Shown: one piece after another, positions 1,009 through 12,415 of the stretch
Numbering within the stretch: position 1 is the first letter of the stretch
How the letters are laid out: every line of letters starts with the position of its first letter
IMG/VR virus record: IMGVR_UViG_2609459834_000014
Direction: 5' to 3' (one strand)
DNA from: a virus
Taxonomy: Duplodnaviria > Heunggongvirae > Uroviricota > Caudoviricetes
Length of the DNA: 12,415 nt
Position numbers and translations under genes: made by a program
Notes under the pieces: generated by a model
The model's input: the letters and a program-made list of their open reading frames with translations, nothing else
Database searches by the model: none
What the model was told of the DNA's origin: nothing

Positions 1009-1081
1009 GTCCTCTTAGTTAAATGGATATAACGAGCCCCTCCTAAGGGCTAATTGCAGGTTCGATTCCTGCAGGGGACAC
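1009..1081 (+). tRNA. argW: tRNA-Arg (anticodon CCT)
   Basis: Cloverleaf read by hand. Acceptor GTCCTCT (1009-1015) pairs with AGGGGAC (1073-1079); anticodon stem AGCCC/GGGCT flanks loop CTCCTAA with U33-CCT-A37; T-arm GCAGG-TTCGATT-CCTGC; discriminator A at 1080. The sequence then reads CTTT, so a full CCA is not encoded at this junction. Confidence 0.9.
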
Positions 1082-1255
1082 TTTAAAGACCTTTCTCTAC
1101 ATTTCACTTCATTACATAACCACTTAAAAAAACAGTAAGTTATCACCGAATCGGCCTGATTTTCATTTCAGTTAATTTCATGACATTACAACCTCGTGAT
1201 GGTATAAGTGATGGTATTCCCCAGTTCGATATGCAGATACCATCAATTTACCAAA

Positions 1256-2542
1256 ATGAGTACAGATATGGCCATTAATGTGCTTTCCCCCAAACAGATA
1301 GAAAACGCCAAGCCGAAGACCAATGATTACAAACTTACCGATGGAGGGAGTTTGTATCTACTGGTACGAAAGACTGGTGGAAAATACTGGCGTATGAATT
1401 ATCGTTTTGATGGAAAACAAGTGACATTGGCATTAGGGGTCTACCCAGATGTCTCACTTGCAACAGCGCGGAAACGGCGTGATGAAGCCAGGCAACTACT
1501 AGCCGATGGTCGTGATCCTCGCGAAGCAAAGAAACCCAAAAAGGAAGACCCAATTTCCCCCACGTTCGAGAGTGTTGCCAGAGAGTGGCATAGTGGAACG
1601 ATGGGGCATCCTGAGTGGAAAGAGATCACCCGTAAAAAAATTCTCCGAGAAATGGAAAACCACCTCTTTCCTGCCATCGGTTCAAAGCCTATCGATACGC
1701 TCAAAACCCGTGACTTGATGCCGATGCTGGTTGAGATGACTGAGAAAGGAATTGGTGCCACAACGAGCCGGGTAAAAACCACTATGACGAGCATCTTCCG
1801 TTATGCCGTGCAACGTGGAATTGTCGATTACAACCCTGCCCACGATCTAAAAGGTGCAATTACGACCCCCAAAGTACGACATCGCCCCGCACTACCTCTC
1901 GAACGTTTACCTGAACTGTTAGCGAAAACGAGAAGTTACACGGGAAGACCATTGACTCGCCTAGCAGTTCTATTTTCCCTGCACACTTTTGTGCGATCCA
2001 GCGAACTACGACATGCCAGATGGGAGGAGATCGACATTGAAAATGGGCTATGGACGATACCAGGACAACGTGAAGAGATCGCAGGGGTTAAATTCTCAGA
2101 GCGGGGTGCAAAGATGGGGGCTGCTCATTATGTCCCGCTATCTAGTCAGGCTATCGGGGTACTGGAGGATATAAGGAAAATCAGTGGTGAATATCTGCTG
2201 GTTTTCCCCGGTGACAGCAACCCATATAAACCGATGAGCGAAAACACAGTTAATAAAGCACTGCGAACGATGGGTTACGACACTCAAAGTGATGTTTGCT
2301 TGCATGGGTTCAGGGCGATGGCCTGCTCTGCACTGACCGAATCAGGACTCTGGTCACGCGATGCAGTTGAACGGCAGATGAGTCACCAAGAAAGAAACGA
2401 AGTGCGGGCAGCATATGTGCATCTTGCGCAGCACATGCAGGAACGCCGCAGAATGATGCAATGGTGGTCTAATTATCTGGAACTAAATAAGGACGAATTT
2501 CATGCTCCTTATGACTTATCAGGTATTAACATTATCAATTAA
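1256..2542 (+). CDS. int: Tyrosine site-specific recombinase (P4-type integrase)
   Basis: The N-terminus (LSPKQIENAKPKTNDYKLTDGGSLYLLVRKTGGKYWRMNYRFDGKQ...LALGVYPDVSLATARKRRDEARQLLADG) matches the conserved P4-integrase arm-binding domain. The C-terminal catalytic region carries R...HGFR...Y-type residues (LHGFRAMACS, RAAYVH). Start is ambiguous: GTG 1208, ATG 1256 or ATG 1268, none with a strong Shine-Dalgarno. Stop at 2540-2542. Confidence 0.88.
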   Translation: MSTDMAINVLSPKQIENAKPKTNDYKLTDGGSLYLLVRKTGGKYWRMNYRFDGKQVTLALGVYPDVSLATARKRRDEARQLLADGRDPREAKKPKKEDPISPTFESVAREWHSGTMGHPEWKEITRKKILREMENHLFPAIGSKPIDTLKTRDLMPMLVEMTEKGIGATTSRVKTTMTSIFRYAVQRGIVDYNPAHDLKGAITTPKVRHRPALPLERLPELLAKTRSYTGRPLTRLAVLFSLHTFVRSSELRHARWEEIDIENGLWTIPGQREEIAGVKFSERGAKMGAAHYVPLSSQAIGVLEDIRKISGEYLLVFPGDSNPYKPMSENTVNKALRTMGYDTQSDVCLHGFRAMACSALTESGLWSRDAVERQMSHQERNEVRAAYVHLAQHMQERRRMMQWWSNYLELNKDEFHAPYDLSGINIIN

Positions 2543-2572
2543 ATTTTCTTATAATTTAAAACAGAGGTCATA

Positions 2573-3454
2573 ATGCAGCATTCAAAAGAGAATGAAACTA
2601 TATTCTTAGGAAATCTATGGATTGACAAAAAAATACCACCATTAGAATATTGTTCATTTGAACGCGCTTCAAGACTATTAGAATGCGAGATTGATGATTT
2701 ATTACACCTATACGAAATAGGCGCCTTTAATATCGCATTCAAGGCGGATGGACTTGCAGTTAGATTTAATGTTAATTTCCTCTATAAAAATCAGAAAATG
2801 GAAATTGACTTAATTCATCCCGTATTAACTAATCAATCACTAGAGATGGAATTTTCAACAATATGGTATGACCTTAAAGATGACTCCTTTGAACATTTTG
2901 AAAATGGGCTTCAAATTATAGGATTTGCCTGTGGTATTTGGTACGCCGATGATATGATAAGTGACATAAAAAATGGATTAGCTATAGATCCAGATTATGA
3001 ATTCAGGCTTAAACCGGTAAAAATACGAGATAATGTTTTGATGGCAACGGCCTCATATGAAGGAAATAAGGTCATTGATATTCCATTTGAAGATCTTCTT
3101 ATCATGCGAAGAGATTTAGAGTTAATATGGAAATCAGTAAAAACTGGAATTCCTATGCCAAGTTTACTTACGAAAAGAATTTCATCTGAACCTAAAATCC
3201 CCAAGCGATTAAATAACACTGCTGAGCATCATGCAAAAAATAGGGAGGGGTTATTAAATGCAGCCATATATATATTAGCAAAATACCCAAGCGAATGTCG
3301 TGGTGAAAGAAAAGAGATAAGTCCTGAAAAGTGGACTAACGCCATAATTAAACATTTAGGAGAGCTACCTCCAATATTTATCACTAATGAACAAGAAATC
3401 TTAAGAAAATTACGATTAGCGGTTAATCATGCGGGATTGAAACAAAAGGGGTAG
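2573..3454 (+). CDS. Hypothetical protein, 293 aa, AT-rich orphan cargo gene of unknown function
   Basis: ATG at 2573 preceded by AGAGGT (2562-2567) at 5-nt spacing. G+C is clearly low (about one third by eye) against the flanking integrase and alpA. I recognise no catalytic motif or family. Confidence 0.7.
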   Translation: MQHSKENETIFLGNLWIDKKIPPLEYCSFERASRLLECEIDDLLHLYEIGAFNIAFKADGLAVRFNVNFLYKNQKMEIDLIHPVLTNQSLEMEFSTIWYDLKDDSFEHFENGLQIIGFACGIWYADDMISDIKNGLAIDPDYEFRLKPVKIRDNVLMATASYEGNKVIDIPFEDLLIMRRDLELIWKSVKTGIPMPSLLTKRISSEPKIPKRLNNTAEHHAKNREGLLNAAIYILAKYPSECRGERKEISPEKWTNAIIKHLGELPPIFITNEQEILRKLRLAVNHAGLKQKG

Positions 3455-3491
3455 ACTGAAACAATCTACAGGTAGAGTTGATTACACTACC

Positions 3492-3548
3492 TTCACAGCA
3501 TTTTGATATCCCCATAGTATCTGCCGTGTTCATTACATAACACGGCAG
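3492..3548 (+). promoter_or_regulatory. Putative alpA promoter with a 10-bp perfect inverted repeat over the predicted start site and 5' UTR
   Basis: TTCACA (3492-3497), 17 bp, TAGTAT (3515-3520). Perfect inverted repeat CTGCCGTGTT (3521-3530) / AACACGGCAG (3539-3548) with 8-bp spacer CATTACAT, ending 8 bp before the alpA ATG. Confidence 0.35.
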
Positions 3549-3556
3549 GTAATTTC

Positions 3557-3772
3557 ATGACATTAAAAACTTATCCTATCACTGGACATGCCCGCCCACG
3601 AGCTACTGCTGACTTTTTGCAAATAAGTACGGTTACTCTCTGGCGCTGGGAAAAGAACAATCCTGAATTTCCCAAATCTATACGCATTTCAAAACGGGTA
3701 TCTGTTTACGATGCACAAGAAATTAGGCAGTGGGTTAAAGCTCAATCAGCAGGATTGGAGGAAGTAGTGTAA
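3557..3772 (+). CDS. alpA: AlpA-family phage transcriptional regulator (helix-turn-helix; excision/activation control)
   Basis: 71-aa ORF. The segment FLQISTVTLWRWEKNNPEFPKSIRISKRVSVYDAQEIRQWV matches the AlpA/Vis-type HTH pattern (x-T-hy-Y/W-x-W ... FPK ... V-x-W ... EI-x-W). Position right after the integrase module is typical. Confidence 0.8.
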   Translation: MTLKTYPITGHARPRATADFLQISTVTLWRWEKNNPEFPKSIRISKRVSVYDAQEIRQWVKAQSAGLEEVV

Positions 3773-3821
3773 TGACAATATTAACAAAGCTGGGGAGAAA
3801 AAAGCCTCCCCAACGTATTAA

Positions 3822-4016
3822 TCAATTCTTTGGTTCTAAACCTCGGCTTTGTAACTCTTTGCGTAGAATGCGCTTGATCCAAGCCGCTAGCGATTCATCG
3901 CCATCCTGCTGTTGTGCTTGTTCCATCAGTTCACGCAGTTCAGGGTCAAGTCGGAACTGGAATGGCGGATTCCCACGTCTTTCATTTTTGTGTGTTGACA
4001 CGTCAATTACACCCAT
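3822..4016 (-). CDS. Possible ribbon-helix-helix (CopG/Arc-like) small DNA-binding protein, 64 aa
   Basis: The translation FQFRLDPELRELMEQAQQQDGDESLAAWIKRILRKEL has the strand-helix-helix layout of RHH repressors. It is divergent from the downstream operon and next to a perfect palindrome. Weak points: no clear Shine-Dalgarno before its ATG (4014-4016 on the - strand), and it overlaps a low-complexity + strand ORF. Confidence 0.4.
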   Translation of the reverse strand: MGVIDVSTHKNERRGNPPFQFRLDPELRELMEQAQQQDGDESLAAWIKRILRKELQSRGLEPKN

Positions 4017-4049
4017 TGTAATGTATTTATGTGTAATGACACATTACAC
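3995..4049. promoter_or_regulatory. Strong rightward sigma70 promoter with an adjacent perfect palindromic operator
   Basis: TTGACA (3995-4000), 16 bp, TGTAAT (4017-4022) on the + strand. It is followed by the perfect inverted repeat GTGTAATG-ACA-CATTACAC (4031-4049); further GTAATG/CATTAC-like half-sites lie at 4003-4023. Located between the RHH-like ORF and the Icd-like-to-primase operon. Confidence 0.45.
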
Positions 4050-4132
4050 ACAGAAAAACAAAATAGCAACGCCCCGGAGTGTTTGCAGCACCACCGAGGC
4101 GTCTGACCAGCACGTTATATGAGGTAACGAAG

Positions 4133-4309
4133 ATGGCTAAACAGAAGTGTACCTGGTTATTTGCGGCGATCAACCGCAGTCAACGTAATGCCCGTCCGGT
4201 GATGTTAAGGATCACCGCAGATAACGAGCGATCAGCGCGGCGCAGACTTGCCCCGGACTATGTACTGAGCTTTGCCGGGCGCATTCCCTGCGGAGGTGAA
4301 CATGCGTAA
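4133..4309 (+). CDS. Small Icd-like (phage cell-division-inhibitor family) protein, 58 aa
   Basis: ATG at 4133 preceded by GAGG (4121-4124). The translation MAKQKCTWLFAAINRSQRNARPVMLRITADNERSARRRLAPDYVLSFAGRIPCGGEHA resembles, from memory, the short Icd-like proteins found in P4-like satellites. The ORF track extends it to an upstream GTG at 4079. Confidence 0.5.
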   Translation: MAKQKCTWLFAAINRSQRNARPVMLRITADNERSARRRLAPDYVLSFAGRIPCGGEHA

Positions 4310-4661
4310 TTATCCGCATCCCGGCGAACGCTGGCAGCATGAACGTGGCTGGACGGTCACGATTATCCGATTAATAGAAGCCTCGCCCTCTGTGGCGCTG
4401 GTTAATCCTGAATTCAGCTGTGAAGTGCTGATACGTCATGACAGCGACAACCAGCTTTCTTCCTGCCCTCTGGCATGGTTTGAACAGCGATATACGCGCC
4501 TGTTTGATGTACCGCTCTTTAAGCCTGCACCAGCTCCTGCAGGCGGTAGTGGTTCCGGCCCGCTGACACTGCATCCGTCTGTGCTATTTATCCGCTGGCG
4601 GGAGCGTAGCATATGGCGTTCTGCTGAGCCTGATGACGGTCACTATTCAAAGTTTCTCTGA
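4302..4661 (+). CDS. Hypothetical satellite protein, 119 aa
   Basis: ATG at 4302 preceded by GGAGG (4292-4296); overlaps the stop of the Icd-like ORF by 8 nt, suggesting translational coupling. High G+C like the island core. Contains a Gly/Pro/Ala-rich linker (PAPAPAGGSGSGP). Confidence 0.6.
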   Translation: MRNYPHPGERWQHERGWTVTIIRLIEASPSVALVNPEFSCEVLIRHDSDNQLSSCPLAWFEQRYTRLFDVPLFKPAPAPAGGSGSGPLTLHPSVLFIRWRERSIWRSAEPDDGHYSKFL

Positions 4662-4692
4662 CAAAACACCGCTGAAAACGGAGTAATCCACA

Positions 4693-4977
4693 ATGAATAT
4701 TTCAAACGGGCACAACGGTGCTCAGGGCCAGACTTTGCCTGAAAAACACAATACCGGTGCTTTTGCCTATGGGTTGTCAGAGGACGGTTTCGGAAAGCTG
4801 ACCCGCGCAAGAAATGCCTGCGACATGCTCCAGCTTCTCTTTTCTGAATACCCGTCTCAGGCCGGAGCACTGGACGCAGGCTGTGCGCCTGGTGTCGCCG
4901 CGCTGATGGAGTACCTGCGGGCAGATTTGACGGATATTGCGCACAGCTGTGCACTGATTGAAGGAGGTGCCAGATGA
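4693..4977 (+). CDS. Hypothetical satellite protein, 94 aa
   Basis: ATG at 4693 with GGAG at 4679-4682; same orientation and composition as its neighbours. Its size and position upstream of the primase recall P4 epsilon, but I see no sequence support for that. Confidence 0.55.
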   Translation: MNISNGHNGAQGQTLPEKHNTGAFAYGLSEDGFGKLTRARNACDMLQLLFSEYPSQAGALDAGCAPGVAALMEYLRADLTDIAHSCALIEGGAR

Positions 4978-5357
4978 ACCAGCCGCAGGTTTCCATTTTC
5001 CCGGCAGAAATGACCACCGCGCTTTACCGGCGGGCTATTGCTTCAGCATGGCGGCAGAAAATGCTGAACGAAACTGGCAATGATCAGTATGGTCCGCACA
5101 GCCTGACGGTGGAGCGTATTGAAATGGCCATTGCGCTGCATATCGAGTGCGCACTGATTAACGAGTACGGCGAAGCACAGGGCGCCGCTGCCGCGCTGGC
5201 ACTGCTAACTGACATGCTGGAGCCGTCACTGCTGACCGCGCCGCCGGTACTGACCGCGCGCGGTTGTGAAGTAATGGCGGAGATGTACCGCACGCTTCCG
5301 GCGGCCTTTGATGACTTCTGCAGTACCGGTGTGACGTTGTATCAGGGGGAAGTATGA
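4974..5357 (+). CDS. Hypothetical satellite protein, 127 aa
   Basis: ATG at 4974 preceded by GGAGGTG (4963-4969); 4-nt ATGA overlap with the preceding ORF, and its stop overlaps the primase start. Confidence 0.6.
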   Translation: MNQPQVSIFPAEMTTALYRRAIASAWRQKMLNETGNDQYGPHSLTVERIEMAIALHIECALINEYGEAQGAAAALALLTDMLEPSLLTAPPVLTARGCEVMAEMYRTLPAAFDDFCSTGVTLYQGEV

Positions 5358-8026
5358 CAATACAGACGGTTACGCAGATTTCAGCCGCCGCACGGGGGAA
5401 ATGGCCCGTTATTCTCCAGATGCTGCGTATTGATGTACCTGAAAACGGCAGGCACGGTCCCTGCCCGAAATGTGGGGGCAAGGATCGTTTTCGCCTTGAT
5501 GACCTTGACGGGCGCGGGACGTGGATCTGCAGCCAGTGTGGCAATGGTGACGGTCTGGATCTGGTTAAGCTCGTAACCGGTTACAGCGTCAGAAAGGCTG
5601 CGCAGGAGGTGGCGCAGGTGCTTAATGTGCCGGATGTGCAGGAACTGCCTGTTAAGCCTGCCAGACAAAAAGCCCCTAAACGCGACATGGGGCTTACCGT
5701 GGCGGCGCTGATGAAAGAGAGCCACACGGGAGAAAGCGCCTATCTGACAGGAAAAGGGTTCGCCGGATACCCGGCCTCTCTGACCGGAAGCGTGCAGCAT
5801 ATCAGCGGTAAGGATTTTCCTGCCGGTTCCCTGCTGTTACCACTCACGACCAACACCGGAGCCGTGACCGGTGCACAGCTTATCGCCCCGACGGGTGAAA
5901 AAAGCATACTGCCCGGCAGCACGATGAAAGGCGCGTTTGTGTCGCTCAGCCCGTTACCGTCTGAACCACCGGTACAGGTGGTGATTACCGAAGGTTACGC
6001 TACGGCGCTGACGGTAAGTCAGCTCACTGCCGGATGCGTAGTGGCTGCCATATCTGCGGGCAACCTGCCCAATGTGGCGCAGTCGCTGCGGGCACGCTGG
6101 CCTGAGGTAAAAATTATCATCGCCGGTGATAACGATTTTCAGGACGGAGGTGAGAATCCCGGCAGAGCCTTTGCTGAACGGGCGGCAAAAGCTGTTGGCG
6201 GCTGGATGACGCTGCCACCAGGAGAGATTAAGGCTGACTGGAATGACTTTCATCGGGAGCACGGTATTACCCGTGCCCGTGAAGCCTTTCGCAACGGTCT
6301 GGTACTGTGCGGGGAAGGCCGCACGCAACTGCCGCACGGGTTCCGTCTTACCCAGGAATATCTCTGGTATGAAAAGCAGGTACAGCGCAACGGTGAGACG
6401 GAGATCCAGAACGTCAAAATATGCAGCCCGCTGCGCGTGACGGCAATCACCTGCGATGCCGATGGCGGTAACTTCGGACGACTGCTGGAATGGGAAGATA
6501 CGTGGGGTGAGTGTCGCCGCTGGGCGATGCCGATGGAAATGCTGAGCGGCAGTGGTGAGGAACTGCGCCGGGTACTGCTGGTTAACGGGCTGTCTTATAT
6601 CAGCACCACCGGTGAGGCACGCGCACGCCTGATGGAATATATCTCACTGTGTAAACCGGAACGCCGCGTGACCTGCGTCAGTCGTACTGGCTGGCATGGT
6701 CAGGTTTACGTCCTGCAGGATGAGGTCAGCGGTGAAGGTGCAGAGGGTGTCATTCTCCAGACCACTTCCGTGCAGGGGCGTGATTTCCGCGTGTCGGGCA
6801 CAACAGAGGAATGGCGGGAGCATGTATCCCGCTACTGTACCGGCAACTCCCGCGTGGCATTTGCTGTCAGCCTGGCCTTTGCTGCACCACTGTTACGGCT
6901 GGTTGGTATGGACGGCGGCGGCTACCACCTCAAAGGGGAATCGACAGACGGTAAGACCACCACCATGAAAGCGGCAACCTCCGTCTGCGGCGGGCCTGAC
7001 TACTGGCAGACATGGCGGGCCACCGGCAACGCGCTGGAGGGATGCGCCAGCCGCCGCAACGATGCCGCCATGATGCTTGATGAGATCCGGGAAGTTGACG
7101 GACGCGAGGCAGGCAATATCGCCTACATGCTGGCAAACGGTCAGGGCAAGGGCCGTGCCGGTACGGACGGTGAGCTGCGTACCCGTAAGCAGTGGCGCCT
7201 GTTGTTCTTTTCAACTGGCGAGTTGTCTCTGACCGAACATGCGGCAAAGGCCGGTGAGCGTACTTTTGCCGGGATGGAAGTCAGGATGATCCAGATCCCC
7301 AGCGATTCCGGGAAGTTTGGCGTTTTTGAGGAGCTGCACGGCTTCGACAGCGGCAAGGCTCTGGCAGAGCATCTTGAATGGGCCACGTCCTGCTACTACG
7401 GTTCGCCGTTCCGGGAGTGGCTGAAAGCACTGACCGCTGATCTTAACGGACTAACGGCACAGGCAAAATCGCTGATGAAGGAATATGCTGCCGCCCTGAC
7501 TCCGAAAGATGCAGGCAATCAGGTGGGCCGGGCTGTGAACCGCTTTGCTCTGGTGGCGATGGCAGGTGAACTGGCAACCCGTCTGGGTATCACCGGCTGG
7601 CCTGAGGGTGAAGCACTGCGGGCAACCCGCGTCTGCCTGAACGCATGGCTGAAAGATCGCGGGCACACCGCCAATCAGGAAGATATCGCCGCACTGGAGC
7701 AGGTTCGCAGTTTCTTTACCGCGAATCAGTACAGCCGCTTTGCAGACTGGTATGACGAGCGCAACCGCCCCGGCAATATGGTGGGCTGGCGCAGGGTGGA
7801 GAAAGGCAGTACCGCGCAGGGCACGGAAGCTGTCACTACGTTCTATGTCATGCCGTCCGGCTGGAAAGAAATCTGCAGGGGATTTGACCCGCGCAAGGTG
7901 GCGCGTCTGTGCGCAGATCGTGGATACCTGCTGCCCTCCACTGATGGCAAACTCCAGACAACCATTCGCCCGCCAGAGATGAATCCCCGCAGGCTCTATG
8001 TCTTCAACAGCGAGGTGCCGGGTTAA
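5354..8026 (+). CDS. Primase-helicase (P4 alpha-like replication protein: zinc ribbon, TOPRIM primase, Walker-A NTPase)
   Basis: 890-aa ORF, ATG at 5354 after a GGGGGAAG tract. N-terminal Cys4 ribbon (CPKCGG...CSQCG). TOPRIM signature with a conserved Glu (VVITEGYATAL) and acidic DxD cluster (IIAGDNDFQD). Walker A GESTDGKTT further downstream. Followed immediately by an iteron array. Confidence 0.9.
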   Translation: MTIQTVTQISAAARGKWPVILQMLRIDVPENGRHGPCPKCGGKDRFRLDDLDGRGTWICSQCGNGDGLDLVKLVTGYSVRKAAQEVAQVLNVPDVQELPVKPARQKAPKRDMGLTVAALMKESHTGESAYLTGKGFAGYPASLTGSVQHISGKDFPAGSLLLPLTTNTGAVTGAQLIAPTGEKSILPGSTMKGAFVSLSPLPSEPPVQVVITEGYATALTVSQLTAGCVVAAISAGNLPNVAQSLRARWPEVKIIIAGDNDFQDGGENPGRAFAERAAKAVGGWMTLPPGEIKADWNDFHREHGITRAREAFRNGLVLCGEGRTQLPHGFRLTQEYLWYEKQVQRNGETEIQNVKICSPLRVTAITCDADGGNFGRLLEWEDTWGECRRWAMPMEMLSGSGEELRRVLLVNGLSYISTTGEARARLMEYISLCKPERRVTCVSRTGWHGQVYVLQDEVSGEGAEGVILQTTSVQGRDFRVSGTTEEWREHVSRYCTGNSRVAFAVSLAFAAPLLRLVGMDGGGYHLKGESTDGKTTTMKAATSVCGGPDYWQTWRATGNALEGCASRRNDAAMMLDEIREVDGREAGNIAYMLANGQGKGRAGTDGELRTRKQWRLLFFSTGELSLTEHAAKAGERTFAGMEVRMIQIPSDSGKFGVFEELHGFDSGKALAEHLEWATSCYYGSPFREWLKALTADLNGLTAQAKSLMKEYAAALTPKDAGNQVGRAVNRFALVAMAGELATRLGITGWPEGEALRATRVCLNAWLKDRGHTANQEDIAALEQVRSFFTANQYSRFADWYDERNRPGNMVGWRRVEKGSTAQGTEAVTTFYVMPSGWKEICRGFDPRKVARLCADRGYLLPSTDGKLQTTIRPPEMNPRRLYVFNSEVPG

Positions 8027-8053
8027 GGCTTTGCGTGAGTCTTATTTATTAAG

Positions 8054-8248
8054 GGTAACAGGTGAAACAGGTGGAACAACCGTATTTTACAGGGCTGAAC
8101 CTGTTCCACCTTCTGAAATAGTGAGGTGGAACAGATGTAACGCCAGCCAATCCGCTGTTCCACCTTGTTACCCGCGATGTTCCACCGGTGCAGTGTATAT
8201 AAATTCCTTATAAAACAAAGCTGTAACACATGTTTCACCTGTTCCACC
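8054..8248. repeat. Iteron cluster, probable satellite origin of replication
   Basis: Eight copies of the 9-mer TGTT(C/T)CACC or its complement GGTG(G/A)AACA: 8061-8069, 8070-8078, 8102-8110, 8125-8133, 8156-8164, 8178-8186, 8231-8239, 8240-8248. Related GGTAACA/TGTTACC copies at 8054-8060 and 8166-8172, and an AT-rich tract at 8192-8220. The motif is close to the TGTTCACC iterons I recall for the P4 origin. Confidence 0.7.
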
Positions 8249-8426
8249 GCATCAGGGACATAAAGCAGACTGAAACAGAGGGCATTTTTATCTGGCTGGC
8301 TTTCATAGCCACGTCTGAATAACCGCAAGCGCCCGTTGTGCCAGCCACCACACACTGAACACCGATAGTGTGCTTGTGTCAGCCACGACACAATTGACGT
8401 AACGAACCAACCCGACAGGAGAAGTC

Positions 8427-9170
8427 ATGAACAACACCGCAGTAAATAACAACCTTTCCACTTTTCCGGCTGTAACGCAGCGGGCACTGGAAACCATGAA
8501 CACAGCCAGAAACGCATGGCTTGAAGCACGTCGTCAGCAGAAAGCGGCAGCGGATAATATTGCGACAATCCGCCAGCGTCGCGCTGAAATGGAAGCCACG
8601 ACGAACACACTGAATGAGGAGTGGCGCACGCTGTTTCGTGAAAGTCAGGGCGTGGTCTCAAAGGAAATGAAAAAACTGCGCACGGAAATTGCGCTGGGAC
8701 GAGAAACGCTTGAGGATTTTGATGAGCTGCTGGCGGCTCAGGAAAGCGAAAATGCACTTTTGCCGCAGAAAGCTGCAGAATTAGCCGGAAAGTATATCCA
8801 CGCGCATAACATTCTTGTGGATATTCGCGCAAAACAAATCTGGGAGGATTTTATGCAGTCGCATGGAAAAGCGCTTATTCAGACGCTGAGCCTGCTTAAA
8901 TCCACAATGGGCCGGGAAGCCAGTGCCGTTGTGGGTGTGGTGAATTCAGTTAATGACCCGGACACAGTGCTGAAAGACTTTATTCATAAACATATCACCA
9001 GACCGGCTCTGGCTAACGATGCGATGCCTGAGCAGGACCCGGTGTTTAAACTGGCGGGAGTTGCCCCGGATTATGCGGCGCGTCTGGATTTCAGTAATCA
9101 ACTCTCTCCGGCAGCTATGCATAAAATTAAGGTTCGTCAGGAACTTGCTGAGAAGGAGAAAGCAGTATGA
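8427..9170 (+). CDS. Hypothetical satellite protein, 247 aa, helical and charge-rich
   Basis: ATG at 8427 with AGGAG (8417-8421) at 5-nt spacing. Composition rich in A/E/K/R/L suggests long helices. First gene of a three-gene co-directional unit that ends with the Ogr/Delta-like gene. Confidence 0.7.
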   Translation: MNNTAVNNNLSTFPAVTQRALETMNTARNAWLEARRQQKAAADNIATIRQRRAEMEATTNTLNEEWRTLFRESQGVVSKEMKKLRTEIALGRETLEDFDELLAAQESENALLPQKAAELAGKYIHAHNILVDIRAKQIWEDFMQSHGKALIQTLSLLKSTMGREASAVVGVVNSVNDPDTVLKDFIHKHITRPALANDAMPEQDPVFKLAGVAPDYAARLDFSNQLSPAAMHKIKVRQELAEKEKAV

Positions 9171-9718
9171 CGGCCCGAGGCACGCCTGACCAGGCACTTA
9201 CCAGTTTTCGGAATGCCCGTATTCTGTGGGCCGGACATAATGAGAGCCGAAAAGCCGTTGAACAACAGATAACATCTCTCCTCGCTGCCACAGAAAAACC
9301 AGCAGATTATGCCCGACAGCTCGAATTACTGCGGGAACGTCTGGATGTGCTGAAATGGCAAATTAACTGTGCTGCGCGCGAATGCATTTACTCGCAGCAT
9401 TTACTGATGGAGGCCTGCACAGAAGCCGCTCTCAGCAATTTTATGCAGGCGAATGGGGCAGCCCTGACATCTGCACTGGCTCCATTCCTGAAGGGGCGCG
9501 GAGGGGTTGACGTTGCGTCCCGTATATTACGCAGTGCTCTGGTTCGCCAGCTGGCAATAACACCGCCTGAAATTGCCGGGGATTATCGTGAGATCCTGGA
9601 TGAATCCGGTTTGATGCCTGACCCCGGGATGATTCGTGATTGCCAGGGTTCTTACACCCCGGCACAACATCTGCGTTTTCAGCAACGCCTGAATGACATT
9701 AACGATATACAGGAGTGA
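9167..9718 (+). CDS. Hypothetical satellite protein, 183 aa
   Basis: ATG at 9167 overlaps the upstream stop (ATGA); AGGAG at 9154-9158. Same composition as its neighbours. Confidence 0.65.
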   Translation: MTARGTPDQALTSFRNARILWAGHNESRKAVEQQITSLLAATEKPADYARQLELLRERLDVLKWQINCAARECIYSQHLLMEACTEAALSNFMQANGAALTSALAPFLKGRGGVDVASRILRSALVRQLAITPPEIAGDYREILDESGLMPDPGMIRDCQGSYTPAQHLRFQQRLNDINDIQE

Positions 9719-9723
9719 TATTA

Positions 9724-9996
9724 ATGGCACTTAAATGTCCGGAATGCGGTACAGTTGCACACGCCAGAACAGCAGCCTATGAAGCTCCGTCAGTTAAACG
9801 CTCGTGGTATCAGTGCCAGAATCTGGAATGTTCCTGCACATTTACGGCACTGGAGAGTGTGGATAAGATAATCATGAAACCCCGGCGCAATGAACAGCTA
9901 TCAGACAAAGCACAATCCCCGGAAAAACAACAGCAAACACTTAATCGCTATGGCTCCGCGTCAAAACTGTCAAGCCGTCAGCAGATTCCTGTCTGA
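9724..9996 (+). CDS. Ogr/Delta-family zinc-finger late-gene transcriptional activator
   Basis: ATG at 9724 with AGGAG (9711-9715) at 8-nt spacing. The N-terminus has the exact Ogr/Delta spacing Cys5-x2-Cys8-x22-Cys31-x4-Cys36 (MALKCPECG...YQCQNLEC) with a conserved HART-like tract (AHART). The GTG at 9715 in the ORF track lies inside the ribosome-binding site and is not the start. Confidence 0.8.
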   Translation: MALKCPECGTVAHARTAAYEAPSVKRSWYQCQNLECSCTFTALESVDKIIMKPRRNEQLSDKAQSPEKQQQTLNRYGSASKLSSRQQIPV

Positions 9997-10018
9997 TTAG
10001 AAAGAACGCCCACGTAAT

Positions 10019-10043
10019 CCCGGTCCAGTACCGGGATTTTTTA
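10019..10043 (+). terminator. Rho-independent terminator after the Ogr/Delta-like gene
   Basis: Hairpin CCCGG (10019-10023), loop TCCAGTA, CCGGG (10031-10035), then ATTTTTTAT (10036-10044), 23 bp after the stop codon. Confidence 0.6.
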
Positions 10044-10182: not shown

Positions 10183-10423
10183 AGTCTGTTAAGCGAAGCG
10201 GGCAGGCGTGCGGGGCTGCGCACGGAGGCGGAATAAATAGTAATGCTATGGATGCTGGGCACACATAGATAAGAGGTTTACAAATAGTATGCTTGTTGTC
10301 GTAACTGATAGGGGTCTATCAAAATCAGAAATCAAAAACAGTATTTCGTGTAATTTATAGAATTTTCACAGAAAACATATACAATCGTTTCTGATACAGG
10401 AGTCTGATTAAGTTGGGATTATT

Positions 10424-12415
10424 ATGGCCATTCAAAAAAAACAAACAAAAAATTCTGAAAGAAGTATTAAAAGCCAGTTAGAAAAACTTACGGCTGAAAA
10501 AGCCATTTCCGAATATATTTGGAATGCTTTTGATGCTGAAGCCACAAATATTAATATTACAGTTATCCCAAATGGTTTAAGTGGGATATCTTCAATAGAA
10601 ATTATTGATGATGGAACTGGCATCGATTTTAATGAAGTCGATGAAACTTTCGGGCAGTTTTTAGATTCCAAGAAGAAAGCAAAACGAACGCCTGTCACAA
10701 GAGGACATAAAGGTAAGGGGCGGTTTTCATTCTGTAAATTCGCTGATAAAGCCGAATGGACTAGCTGGCGTAATGGAGAGAAATTTACGCTAACTATAGT
10801 TTCATCACATCTAAATGAATATGAGCATTCAGATTTATCCATGTGCTCTCATAAAAATTCTGGAACTAAGGTGGTCTTTAATCCTGTAACAATTACTGAA
10901 GATTATTTTAATTCAATAGTTATACCCTATTTGCAGAACGATATATCTTGGCTGTTGGTGGCCAAACCAAAATTAAAATTAAAAATAAACGGTCAATCTA
11001 TTAGCCCAATAGGATATGCTTCAACTTCAAATAATATTGAATTTGGAGAGGTCGATTTTAATTCGAAAACAGTTATATGGTCTAGTAAACCTGTAGTAGA
11101 AAAATCATATATATATTATTTAAATAATCAAGGTGATATTGTTTACAAAGAGTTTTCTGAGATGAACAAAAAAGGATTTGATTGTTCATCCTATGTCACA
11201 TCAAGTTGGTTTGATGATTTTTCTGAATCAAACGACTTGTTTAATGAATCGAAAAACAGTGTTGACTCAGATATTTTTAAATACATTAGTCTACATGTTA
11301 AAGGTAATTTAAGGGAAGAGTATAGAAAATATAAAAATAATGCGGCAGATCAACTCATTCAAAACTATTTAAATGAGGGTGTGTTTCCAGAATATAAAGG
11401 TGAGAATAGAATGCTCAATGAATTTAAAAGGAATCAACTCATTGAAACTATAAAGATAATTTATGAGGCCGAACCTCAAATTTTCTCCACACTAAACAAG
11501 AAACAAAAAAAAATCTTAATTAAACTATTAGATAGAATTGTTGAAACCAATAATTTATCCAGTCTCTTTGACATTTTTGAAGGTATAGTTTCCCTATCCG
11601 AAGATGAGGTTGATAAACTTTCATCTGTAATAAAAAGAAGTTCACTTTCTAATATTACGAGGACTTTGTCATTTATTAATGATAGACTGGATGTTATTGA
11701 TTATTTTAAAAAAATACTATATGAGAAAAAGAAAGAATCATATGAAGTAAAGCACATTCAAAAGAGCATAGAAAATAATTTATGGCTTTTTGGAGAGCAA
11801 TACACTCTAGTTGCATCAGAAGATGATAAGTTTGATAAAGCTCTTAGAAAGTATCTGGAGAAGACTAAAGGTTTTAACGAAGCACATTATAATAAGTATA
11901 GTGTACAGCATCCAGATAAAAATAAAGAAATGGATATATTTGCAGCACAAAAAATAAAGCGTTACACTGAAAATAATGAAGAATATTTTCATTGCATTGT
12001 GATTGAATTAAAGAAACCAAGTATAAAACTCGGTGATGAAGAACTCGCACAAATAAAGTTATATAAAAATATAATATCTGCGACTGATGAATTTAAAGAC
12101 GATAATACAAAATGGGATTTTATTTTAGTGGGAAATGATATGTCTAATAGCAATATCACTGCTGCAAATTTATCATCAGATCTAGAAACGAATAAAATAC
12201 ATGGTGAGTTTGGCTTGGTTCAAAAAACAACAAATATGAAAATTTACGTCAAAACGTGGAAGCAAATTTTAAATGAGTATGATCTTAGATATAACGACCT
12301 GATCGATAAGCTTAAGTTGAAAGAGTTAGAAATTGCAGAAGATATGGGGCCTGATGAACTCACGGCAAAAATTTTAGAAAAAACGGCAAGACTTCCGACT
12401 TCGATACAGGCTTAG
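10424..12415 (+). CDS. GHKL (Bergerat-fold) ATPase-domain protein with a C-terminal PD-(D/E)xK-like signature; candidate anti-phage or accessory effector of unknown family
   Basis: 663-aa ORF, ATG at 10424 and stop at 12413-12415, which is the last codon of the window. About 30% G+C by eye. All three GHKL motifs are in order: N-box E30-x3-N34-x2-D37-A38 (EYIWNAFDA, from nt 10511), G1 box D62-D-G-T-G66 (nt 10607-10621), G2 box G94-HK-G97-K-G99 (nt 10703-10720). C-terminal D504 ... E528-L-K530 (EMDIF-x-IVIELKKP, nt 11933-12013) fits a PD-(D/E)xK core. Family and function are not recognised. Confidence 0.75.
   Translation: MAIQKKQTKNSERSIKSQLEKLTAEKAISEYIWNAFDAEATNINITVIPNGLSGISSIEIIDDGTGIDFNEVDETFGQFLDSKKKAKRTPVTRGHKGKGRFSFCKFADKAEWTSWRNGEKFTLTIVSSHLNEYEHSDLSMCSHKNSGTKVVFNPVTITEDYFNSIVIPYLQNDISWLLVAKPKLKLKINGQSISPIGYASTSNNIEFGEVDFNSKTVIWSSKPVVEKSYIYYLNNQGDIVYKEFSEMNKKGFDCSSYVTSSWFDDFSESNDLFNESKNSVDSDIFKYISLHVKGNLREEYRKYKNNAADQLIQNYLNEGVFPEYKGENRMLNEFKRNQLIETIKIIYEAEPQIFSTLNKKQKKILIKLLDRIVETNNLSSLFDIFEGIVSLSEDEVDKLSSVIKRSSLSNITRTLSFINDRLDVIDYFKKILYEKKKESYEVKHIQKSIENNLWLFGEQYTLVASEDDKFDKALRKYLEKTKGFNEAHYNKYSVQHPDKNKEMDIFAAQKIKRYTENNEEYFHCIVIELKKPSIKLGDEELAQIKLYKNIISATDEFKDDNTKWDFILVGNDMSNSNITAANLSSDLETNKIHGEFGLVQKTTNMKIYVKTWKQILNEYDLRYNDLIDKLKLKELEIAEDMGPDELTAKILEKTARLPTSIQA

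Follow-up and report, generated by a model that had tools for sequence, protein, structure and literature searches.

A predicted GHKL ATPase–nuclease carried as cargo by a P4-like satellite is a remote homologue of GHKL-type Shedu

INTRODUCTION

Proteins that join a GHKL ATPase to a restriction-type nuclease have been known since 2008, when paraMORC3 was described as a GHKL domain followed by an S5-like middle domain and a C-terminal restriction-endonuclease-fold domain with E-D-ExK motifs (Iyer, Abhiman & Aravind 2008, Biol Direct 3:8; PMC2292703). The paraMORC3 genes are sporadic, laterally mobile and sometimes stand-alone, and the MORC and paraMORC genes as a whole are found mostly in restriction-modification (R-M) operons with superfamily II helicases and methylases, a DNA-looping role having been proposed for them (PMC2292703). 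One member of this architecture was validated as an anti-phage protein in 2025: VcSduA, a 673-amino-acid (aa) GHKL plus PD-(D/E)xK protein encoded on the VSP-II island of the WASA lineage of Vibrio cholerae, is a GHKL-type (type I-D) Shedu that makes Escherichia coli resistant to Drexlerviridae and V. cholerae resistant to phage X29 (Adams et al. 2025, Nat Microbiol; PMC12137116). It works alone in E. coli, its protection was maintained at every multiplicity of infection that was tried and was abolished by either E27A in the ATPase or K557A in the nuclease, and proteins organised in the same way were noted to have been annotated as paraMORC3 (PMC12137116). N-termini composed of HATPase_c_3 and an 'N24' middle domain are also listed among Shedu variants by Gu et al. 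Here we compare these systems with the last open reading frame (ORF) of a 12,415-nucleotide (nt) stretch of DNA, hereafter the window (IMG/VR record IMGVR_UViG_2609459834_000014; its own genome is E. coli PRO_A-1407-6W-A_ESBL), in which the ORF forms the AT-rich cargo gene of a P4-like satellite.

RESULTS

The cargo protein is a remote full-length homologue of VcSduA

The cargo protein (663 aa) and VcSduA (673 aa) are of similar length, share the same domain order and are both encoded on mobile islands. To represent the VcSduA family we used full-length relatives retrieved with a 399-aa VcSduA fragment from the bioRxiv supplement. Aligning the window family with this family in hhalign gave a probability of 98% and an E-value of 2.7e-13 over 531 colinear columns, which run from the ATPase to the nuclease end. 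Within the alignment the nuclease residues pair as E458/E498, D504/D527, E528 and K530/E555 and K557, and Q543 and Y547/Q575 and Y579 (window/VcSduA). At the other end of the proteins E30 of the window protein and E27 of VcSduA correspond by motif, the hhalign alignment itself beginning only at residue 40.

The architecture of the cargo protein is also that of paraMORC3, and E458, D504 and E528-x-K530 fill the E-D-ExK motifs, an assignment that is made on architecture and motifs and not on direct sequence membership. Differences from both described groups are nevertheless evident. The HATPase_c_3 domain of the window protein is canonical (E 2.8e-20), whereas the Pfam GHKL models scarcely detect the VcSduA relatives, and neither the EYIWN motif of the window family nor the name 'Escherichia' occurs in the published table of 543 VcSduA hits. 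Moreover, R-M-linked looping was proposed for paraMORC3, whereas the window gene is solitary satellite cargo. On these alignments the window protein is a remote, full-length and colinear homologue of VcSduA that belongs to a separate subfamily; it is of the paraMORC3 type and remotely homologous to GHKL-type Shedu, but is not a Shedu in the strict DUF4263 sense. The preliminary description of this locus, made from the sequence alone, could not place the gene in a named defence family; the paraMORC3 architecture and the remote homology to VcSduA now provide that placement.

ATPase, middle and nuclease domains

Conservation was judged from an alignment of 42 full-length homologues with 31-78% identity to the query. 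The three GHKL motifs that had been read from the sequence are all present at the residues first given, with motif I being E30-YIW-N34-AF-D37-A38, motif II D62-D-G64-T-G66 and motif III G94-HK-G97-K-G99, and we add G147-T148 as a candidate motif IV. N34, D37, G64, G97, G99 and G147 are invariant, while E30, D62, G66 and G94 are at least 90% conserved. The Pfam model HATPase_c_3 covers residues 23-136 with 73.2 bits (cut-off 25) and matches all 42 family members. Downstream of the ATPase, N248 of the middle domain is invariant and K242 is at least 90% conserved.

A full-length AlphaFold model with a predicted local distance difference test (pLDDT) score of 80.5 was compared with known structures using Foldseek, which returned the N-terminal plus middle domains of Hsp90 and TRAP1, the LN40 fragment of MutL, and MORC2/3 at E ~1e-11 over 295-451 columns. 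Since these alignments exceed the ~150-residue ATPase fold, the middle domain is covered as well. The template modelling (TM) scores to the same structures are moderate (0.25-0.48), probably as a result of differing domain orientations. Motifs, profile, Bergerat fold and middle domain together assign the protein to the GHKL ATPase superfamily, as the preliminary description had proposed, and ATPase activity is predicted from its sequence. The window protein has in common with the modules of MutL, MORC, Hsp90 and Topo VI-B a Bergerat ATP-binding fold followed by a middle domain, but lacks the C-terminal endonuclease/dimerisation domain of MutL, the CW and coiled-coil modules of MORC, and the chaperone C-domain. 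By analogy, ATP-driven dimerisation and clamping are likely to be common to all of them.

The C-terminal part of the protein contains D504-x23-E528-x-K530, which had already been put forward as a nuclease core, and its invariant columns are E458, D504, E528, L529, K530, Q543 and Y547. In both AlphaFold models D504 directly precedes a beta strand, E528 lies near the end of the next long strand and is followed by K530, and Q543 and Y547 are located in the helix after the E528/K530 strand. In the models this is the canonical PD-(D/E)xK layout, from which nuclease activity is predicted; D504, E528 and K530 thus fall inside a nuclease-like core, where the preliminary description would have had to be abandoned had they fallen outside it. 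HSDR_N_2, a Pfam family of the PD-(D/E)xK group, is a recurrent sub-threshold match in 33 of the 42 members. A search of the PDB with the nuclease-domain profile gave no real match, and the same profile run against 5.8 billion proteins found only fragments of the same family and zero DUF4263-annotated proteins.

Homologues are carried by diverse mobile elements

Full-length homologues found among the 5.8 billion proteins are 650-690 aa long and are all labelled only as 'ATP-binding protein', which is also the sole RefSeq label of the window protein (WP_032177514.1). Their sources are Gammaproteobacteria and metagenome-assembled genomes of gut and environmental origin, among them that of a Ruminococcaceae/Oscillospiraceae bacterium. 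When representatives were searched exhaustively with the nuclease-domain profile, 206 clusters (50% identity) were matched at E ≤ 1e-30, 926 at E ≤ 1e-10 and 1,351 at E ≤ 1e-3, and all full-length entries among the best 150 matches have the same architecture and a length of ~660 aa. With 206 clusters at E ≤ 1e-30, the architecture recurs far beyond chance.

The genetic settings of the homologues are varied. A 94%-identical copy, from a protein cluster of 307 sequences, is found after delta in the equivalent slot of a Salmonella satellite that is integrated elsewhere in the chromosome, where it is the last satellite gene before chromosomal genes (the attachment site, att, was not mapped there). 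The V. cholerae homologue (P0044, 52% identity) is a one-gene integron cassette between 123-nt VCR-type repeats (locus L003, 7842-10076; JBBLMX010000037.1), and the V. cholerae array starts beside an integron-type integrase (locus L005). Elsewhere, the homologue of the Ruminococcaceae bacterium, a Firmicute, adjoins Wadjet jetABCD, that of Aliamphritea abuts an integrase, and that of Serratia lies beside a TIR-domain gene next to a yfdC-type locus. More distant full-length relatives (21-34% identity) are found on plasmids of Deinococcus, rhizobia, Roseobacter-group bacteria and Streptomyces, and in Pasteurella phages as an accessory insert among the tail genes. In the contexts examined the family behaves as a stand-alone mobile gene, with some distant relatives located beside large genes.

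These large neighbours bear on the possibility that the cargo protein is one component of an R-M-like or helicase-dependent system with partners elsewhere, and is by itself either inactive or a DNA-looping motor. On a Bradyrhizobium plasmid a relative found amid Abi and toxin-antitoxin genes immediately follows a 1,226-aa DEAD/DEAH helicase (locus L012, 1965-7977), and on a Salmonella plasmid another is found just downstream of a 1,258-aa hypothetical protein (locus L010, 987-7938). Both relatives are full-length, with 23-25% identity. The two loci suggest a helicase-linked branch of the wider family and echo the R-M-like contexts in which MORC and paraMORC genes mostly occur, with their superfamily II helicases and methylases (PMC2292703); in addition, the only PADLOC match of the window protein is to a Type II restriction endonuclease model. 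However, the gene stands alone between delta and the satellite end in three satellites, one homologue forms an integron cassette of a single gene, and the neighbours differ across all contexts examined. Stand-alone paraMORC3 genes were recorded by Iyer et al. (PMC2292703), and the protein has a complete nuclease core of its own; VcSduA is active alone in E. coli (PMC12137116). We therefore regard dependence of the cargo protein on a partner as unlikely.

The gene occupies the variable defence slot of a P4-like satellite

The P4-type core genes and att repeats identify the element as a P4-like satellite integrated at a tRNA-Arg gene. Read from left to right, the locus comprises yfdC, tRNA-Arg(CCU), integrase, a hypothetical gene that is AT-rich, AlpA-like regulator, small ORFs, DUF5375, primase, Psu-like proteins, Ogr/Delta and finally the cargo gene, with whose stop codon the window ends, as first noted. 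The right att core, TTCGATTCCTGCAGGG, lies 535 bp past this stop codon in the window's own genome, so that the element measures ~11.9 kb from att core to att core, and in the circularised satellite the cargo gene would sit between Delta and the integrase. This Delta-integrase slot near cos is a documented P4 defence hotspot (PMC9122126; bioRxiv 10.64898/2026.02.27.708500). The ORF has a G+C content of 30.6%, compared with 54.4% for the satellite core (3557-10000) and 59.1% for the primase gene, and is thus 24 points under the core; the ~30% of the preliminary description is correct for the ORF, whereas its 55-60% for the core is slightly high. Located after delta and before the right attachment site (attR), and with atypical G+C, the cargo gene occupies the variable defence slot of P4, and its description as AT-rich cargo at the accessory end of a P4-like satellite is upheld. 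The cos site itself was not located, as a candidate P2/P4 cos 19-mer had no match with three or fewer mismatches.

The cargo gene is present in 2 of 5,426 complete E. coli genomes, PRO_A-1407-6W-A_ESBL and AH21, to which positions 10200-12415 of the window are 99.9% and 90.9% identical, respectively. In AH21 the att core is found ~610 bp past the stop codon, directly before the chromosomal dsdC. The interval between gene and att holds no annotated gene in the two E. coli loci, only short, overlapping and poorly conserved ORFs. Since the att repeat follows with no gene between, the cargo gene is the last gene of the element and has no partner in it. The preliminary description had left the choice between a single-gene system and the first gene of a larger one, with any partners and attR to be sought downstream; the nearby att cores and the one-gene integron cassette favour the former, and the latter falls away.

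The DNA between the cargo gene and the satellite end was also compared across two E. coli satellites and one Salmonella satellite (loci L001 16217-16750, L002 16217-16826 and L013 11951-12797). It is ~535-850 bp long and 76-85% identical over aligned blocks, the att core being mapped in the two E. coli loci only, and its ORFs are 26-32 aa long (for example MRRFL..CPMC..). A hidden partner ORF in this interval was considered and rejected, as only the short, overlapping and poorly conserved ORFs are found in it. The post-gene DNA is probably the att arm region and may still hold a micro-ORF.

A gene that directly follows the late operon on the same strand could also serve the satellite itself, as a nuclease of its life cycle or of helper competition, or as a toxic, addiction-type nuclease that stabilises the element, and not as a general host defence. 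Between the two E. coli satellites the gene is 90.3% and the core 91.7% identical, and this matching nucleotide divergence indicates that the gene has travelled with the satellite lineage; the 94%-identical Salmonella copy in the same slot is in agreement with this. However, a terminator and ~385 bp of non-coding DNA part the gene from the late operon, its G+C deviates strongly from that of the core, and it is found in only the two E. coli genomes above although P4-like satellites are common (PMC8628076). Its homologues in integrons, plasmids, phages and chromosomal islands likewise speak against a role tied to the satellite, which we consider improbable.

Comparison with profile libraries and with other candidate identities

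Canonical Shedu SduA proteins (B. cereus 8TI8/8TI9, E. coli 8PS4) have a Whirly-like DNA-end sensor at the N-terminus, where the window protein has its ATPase. The P4 hotspot systems Crouga, Bandua, Aernus, Toga, Reve and Hailong were compared with the cargo gene and none fits; Aernus, listed as a 'kinase/nuclease', is DUF4365 plus AbiGii with an MtlR partner. Searches of PDB sequences with the protein and the family profiles found only the N-terminal domains of MutL, MLH1, PMS2, Topo VI-B and MORC. That the protein lacks nuclease function and is a MutL-like ATPase of the housekeeping or DNA-repair kind, or else an inactive remnant, is very unlikely and effectively refuted by the conservation and nuclease-fold evidence: the best PDB and NCBIfam sequence matches are indeed the N-terminal domains of MutL, MLH1 and PMS2, but these matches are far under the cut-offs (29.5 bits against 180) and confined to the ATP-binding fold, a PD-(D/E)xK fold with an invariant catalytic set replaces the MutL C-terminal domain, and the gene is rare, AT-rich, on mobile elements and intact as an ORF in every aligned homologue. 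The housekeeping ATPase family lacking a nuclease fold, which the preliminary description had named as the finding that would overturn its proposal, was thus not encountered.

Several observations weigh against assigning the protein to the GHKL-type Shedu class as a self-sufficient nuclease. Its identity to VcSduA is ~19%, BLASTP detects only a weak GHKL patch, and the hhalign comparison of the nuclease domain alone, at E 4.4e-5, reaches only 69% probability. In structure comparisons of the nuclease domain FokI and NucS outscore the Shedu nuclease domains. PADLOC v2 returned only a weak REase_II match in the ATPase part and NCBIfam only sub-threshold MutL and MzaB matches, with no Shedu-named model among the matches in either library, and the Pfam model SduA_C (PF14082, DUF4263) had no match at E ≤ 1 in the window protein and 10 full-length relatives. 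The large neighbours of distant relatives (21-25% identity) indicate partner-dependent action elsewhere in the wider family. Finally, the DNA upstream of the cargo gene showed no sigma-70 consensus in a promoter scan.

Among C-terminal fragments of the family, 1 of 22 reaches E 7e-4 with SduA_C. VcSduA and its close relatives (P0379/P0381) are themselves unmatched by the current Pfam models SduA_C, HATPase_c and HATPase_c_3 and by PADLOC v2. Because the VcSduA relatives fail SduA_C, the GHKL models and PADLOC, Shedu membership of the whole GHKL class rests on remote or structural similarity, and because VcSduA is unmatched by SduA_C, its 'DUF4263' label is not reproducible with these profile libraries.

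Other features of the window and of its neighbourhood

The coordinates of the domains and of the satellite features are given in Table 1.

Table 1. Features of the cargo gene and of the P4-like satellite, in window coordinates
Feature	Position	Strand	Remarks
GHKL ATPase-nuclease ORF	10424-12415	+	ATG start, 663 aa, complete; RefSeq WP_032177514.1
GHKL (Bergerat-fold) ATPase domain, residues 23-136	10490-10831	+	predicted; Pfam HATPase_c_3, invariant columns, profile matches to MLH1, PMS2, MutL and Topo VI-B
GHKL motif IV (candidate), G147-T148	10862-10867	+	just downstream of residues 23-136
Beta-rich middle domain, ~residues 160-280	10901-11263	+	Foldseek, DSSP and conservation; matches transducer/middle domain of MutL, Hsp90 and MORC
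All-helical linker/arm, ~residues 283-434	11270-11725	+	model helices 283-318, 329-349, 359-375, 378-388 and 393-434; pLDDT 50-80, lowest of the model
PD-(D/E)xK nuclease domain, ~residues 441-612	11744-12259	+	predicted; E458 (first helix), D504, E528-L-K530, Q543-x3-Y547
tRNA-Arg (CCU)	1009-1081	+	3' end (1061-1076) is the left att core TTCGATTCCTGCAGGG (16 nt)
P4-like satellite backbone	1208-9996	+	integrase to Ogr/Delta
Integrase	1208-2542	+	satellite backbone
AlpA-like regulator	3557-3772	+	satellite backbone
DUF5375 protein	4974-5357	+	satellite backbone
Primase (zinc ribbon, TOPRIM, DUF927)	5354-8026	+	satellite backbone
Psu-like proteins	8427-9170 and 9167-9718	+	satellite backbone
Ogr/Delta	9715-9996	+	satellite backbone
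Intrinsic-terminator-like hairpin and T-run after delta	10016-10038	+	parts late operon from cargo gene

Apart from the cargo gene, the satellite and its surroundings differ between genomes at several places. Directly after the integrase the window carries a 293-aa ORF (2573-3454, + strand) that is AT-rich (33.8% G+C) and cargo-like and has no Pfam or PADLOC match. At the same position AH21 has an unrelated 324-aa hypothetical gene (locus L002, 6815-7789), and positions 2487-3518 of the window have no blastn match in AH21. The slot after the integrase therefore looks like a second variable slot with an unassigned gene. In the late region, the second Psu-like ORF (9167-9718; region 9145-9711) is missing from the AH21 satellite, which is otherwise ~91% identical and encodes one 253-aa protein and then delta; the absence of this ORF from AH21 makes the late region a mosaic. 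In the primase-psu gap of AH21 (locus L002, 12389-12478, corresponding to about 8050-8140 of the window) there are three copies of short tandem iterons that are GTGGAACAGGTGGAAC-like and resemble the P4 crr/ori type of repeat.

The genome from which the window comes carries a second integrative element in tandem at the same tRNA-Arg att core (locus L001, 16751-26244), with copies of the core at 4863, 16751 and 26244 of this locus. This element encodes an integrase and a rolling-circle replication protein, and in addition an 826-aa SIR2-family protein whose gene is possibly a further defence gene.

DISCUSSION

Taken together with what is known of VcSduA, the cargo protein is probably a stand-alone ATP-dependent DNA nuclease of the paraMORC3/GHKL-type Shedu class that would act as single-gene anti-phage cargo of its P4-like satellite. 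From the analogy with VcSduA, MutL, MORC and Topo VI-B we infer its ATPase and nuclease activities, the formation of a dimer or clamp, the trigger and the anti-phage phenotype. In such a model the GHKL domain would bind ATP and dimerise, as it does in MutL, Hsp90, MORC and Topo VI-B, and together with the transducer-like middle domain and the long helical arm would form a clamp round DNA. The ATP cycle would then license the PD-(D/E)xK domain (E458, D504, E528 and K530) to cleave the DNA of invading phages, which would protect the host and through it the resident satellite, most likely directly and not by abortive infection, as reported for VcSduA.

A more far-reaching version, in which the protein is a functionally distinct single-protein immune system, is possible but doubtful. 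Its family would then be a large sister family to VcSduA that is unseen by current defence-finders, and its canonical MutL/MORC-like clamp might respond to another trigger, for instance a certain DNA topology, DNA ends or a phage protein; its location on the packaging side of the satellite might spare P2-type helpers while competing phages are killed.

The comparison reveals no new kind of system, as the GHKL plus nuclease architecture and its anti-phage activity were both described before; its residual interest lies in a large subfamily that is carried in the P4 hotspot and goes undetected by the defence models used here. To the class of single-gene defences composed of a GHKL ATPase and a nuclease it adds a widespread subfamily that is missed by PADLOC-DB v2 and Pfam SduA_C, and it shows that P4-like satellites, integron cassettes, prophages and plasmids are among the carriers of this class. 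Because annotation models based on DUF4263 or VcSduA miss these genes, a dedicated profile would recover hundreds of loci. With a GHKL domain more canonical than that of VcSduA and a confident model, the window protein is a convenient one in which to study how a clamp driven by ATP controls a nuclease of the restriction type, a question that also bears on the biology of MutL and of the eukaryotic MORC proteins.

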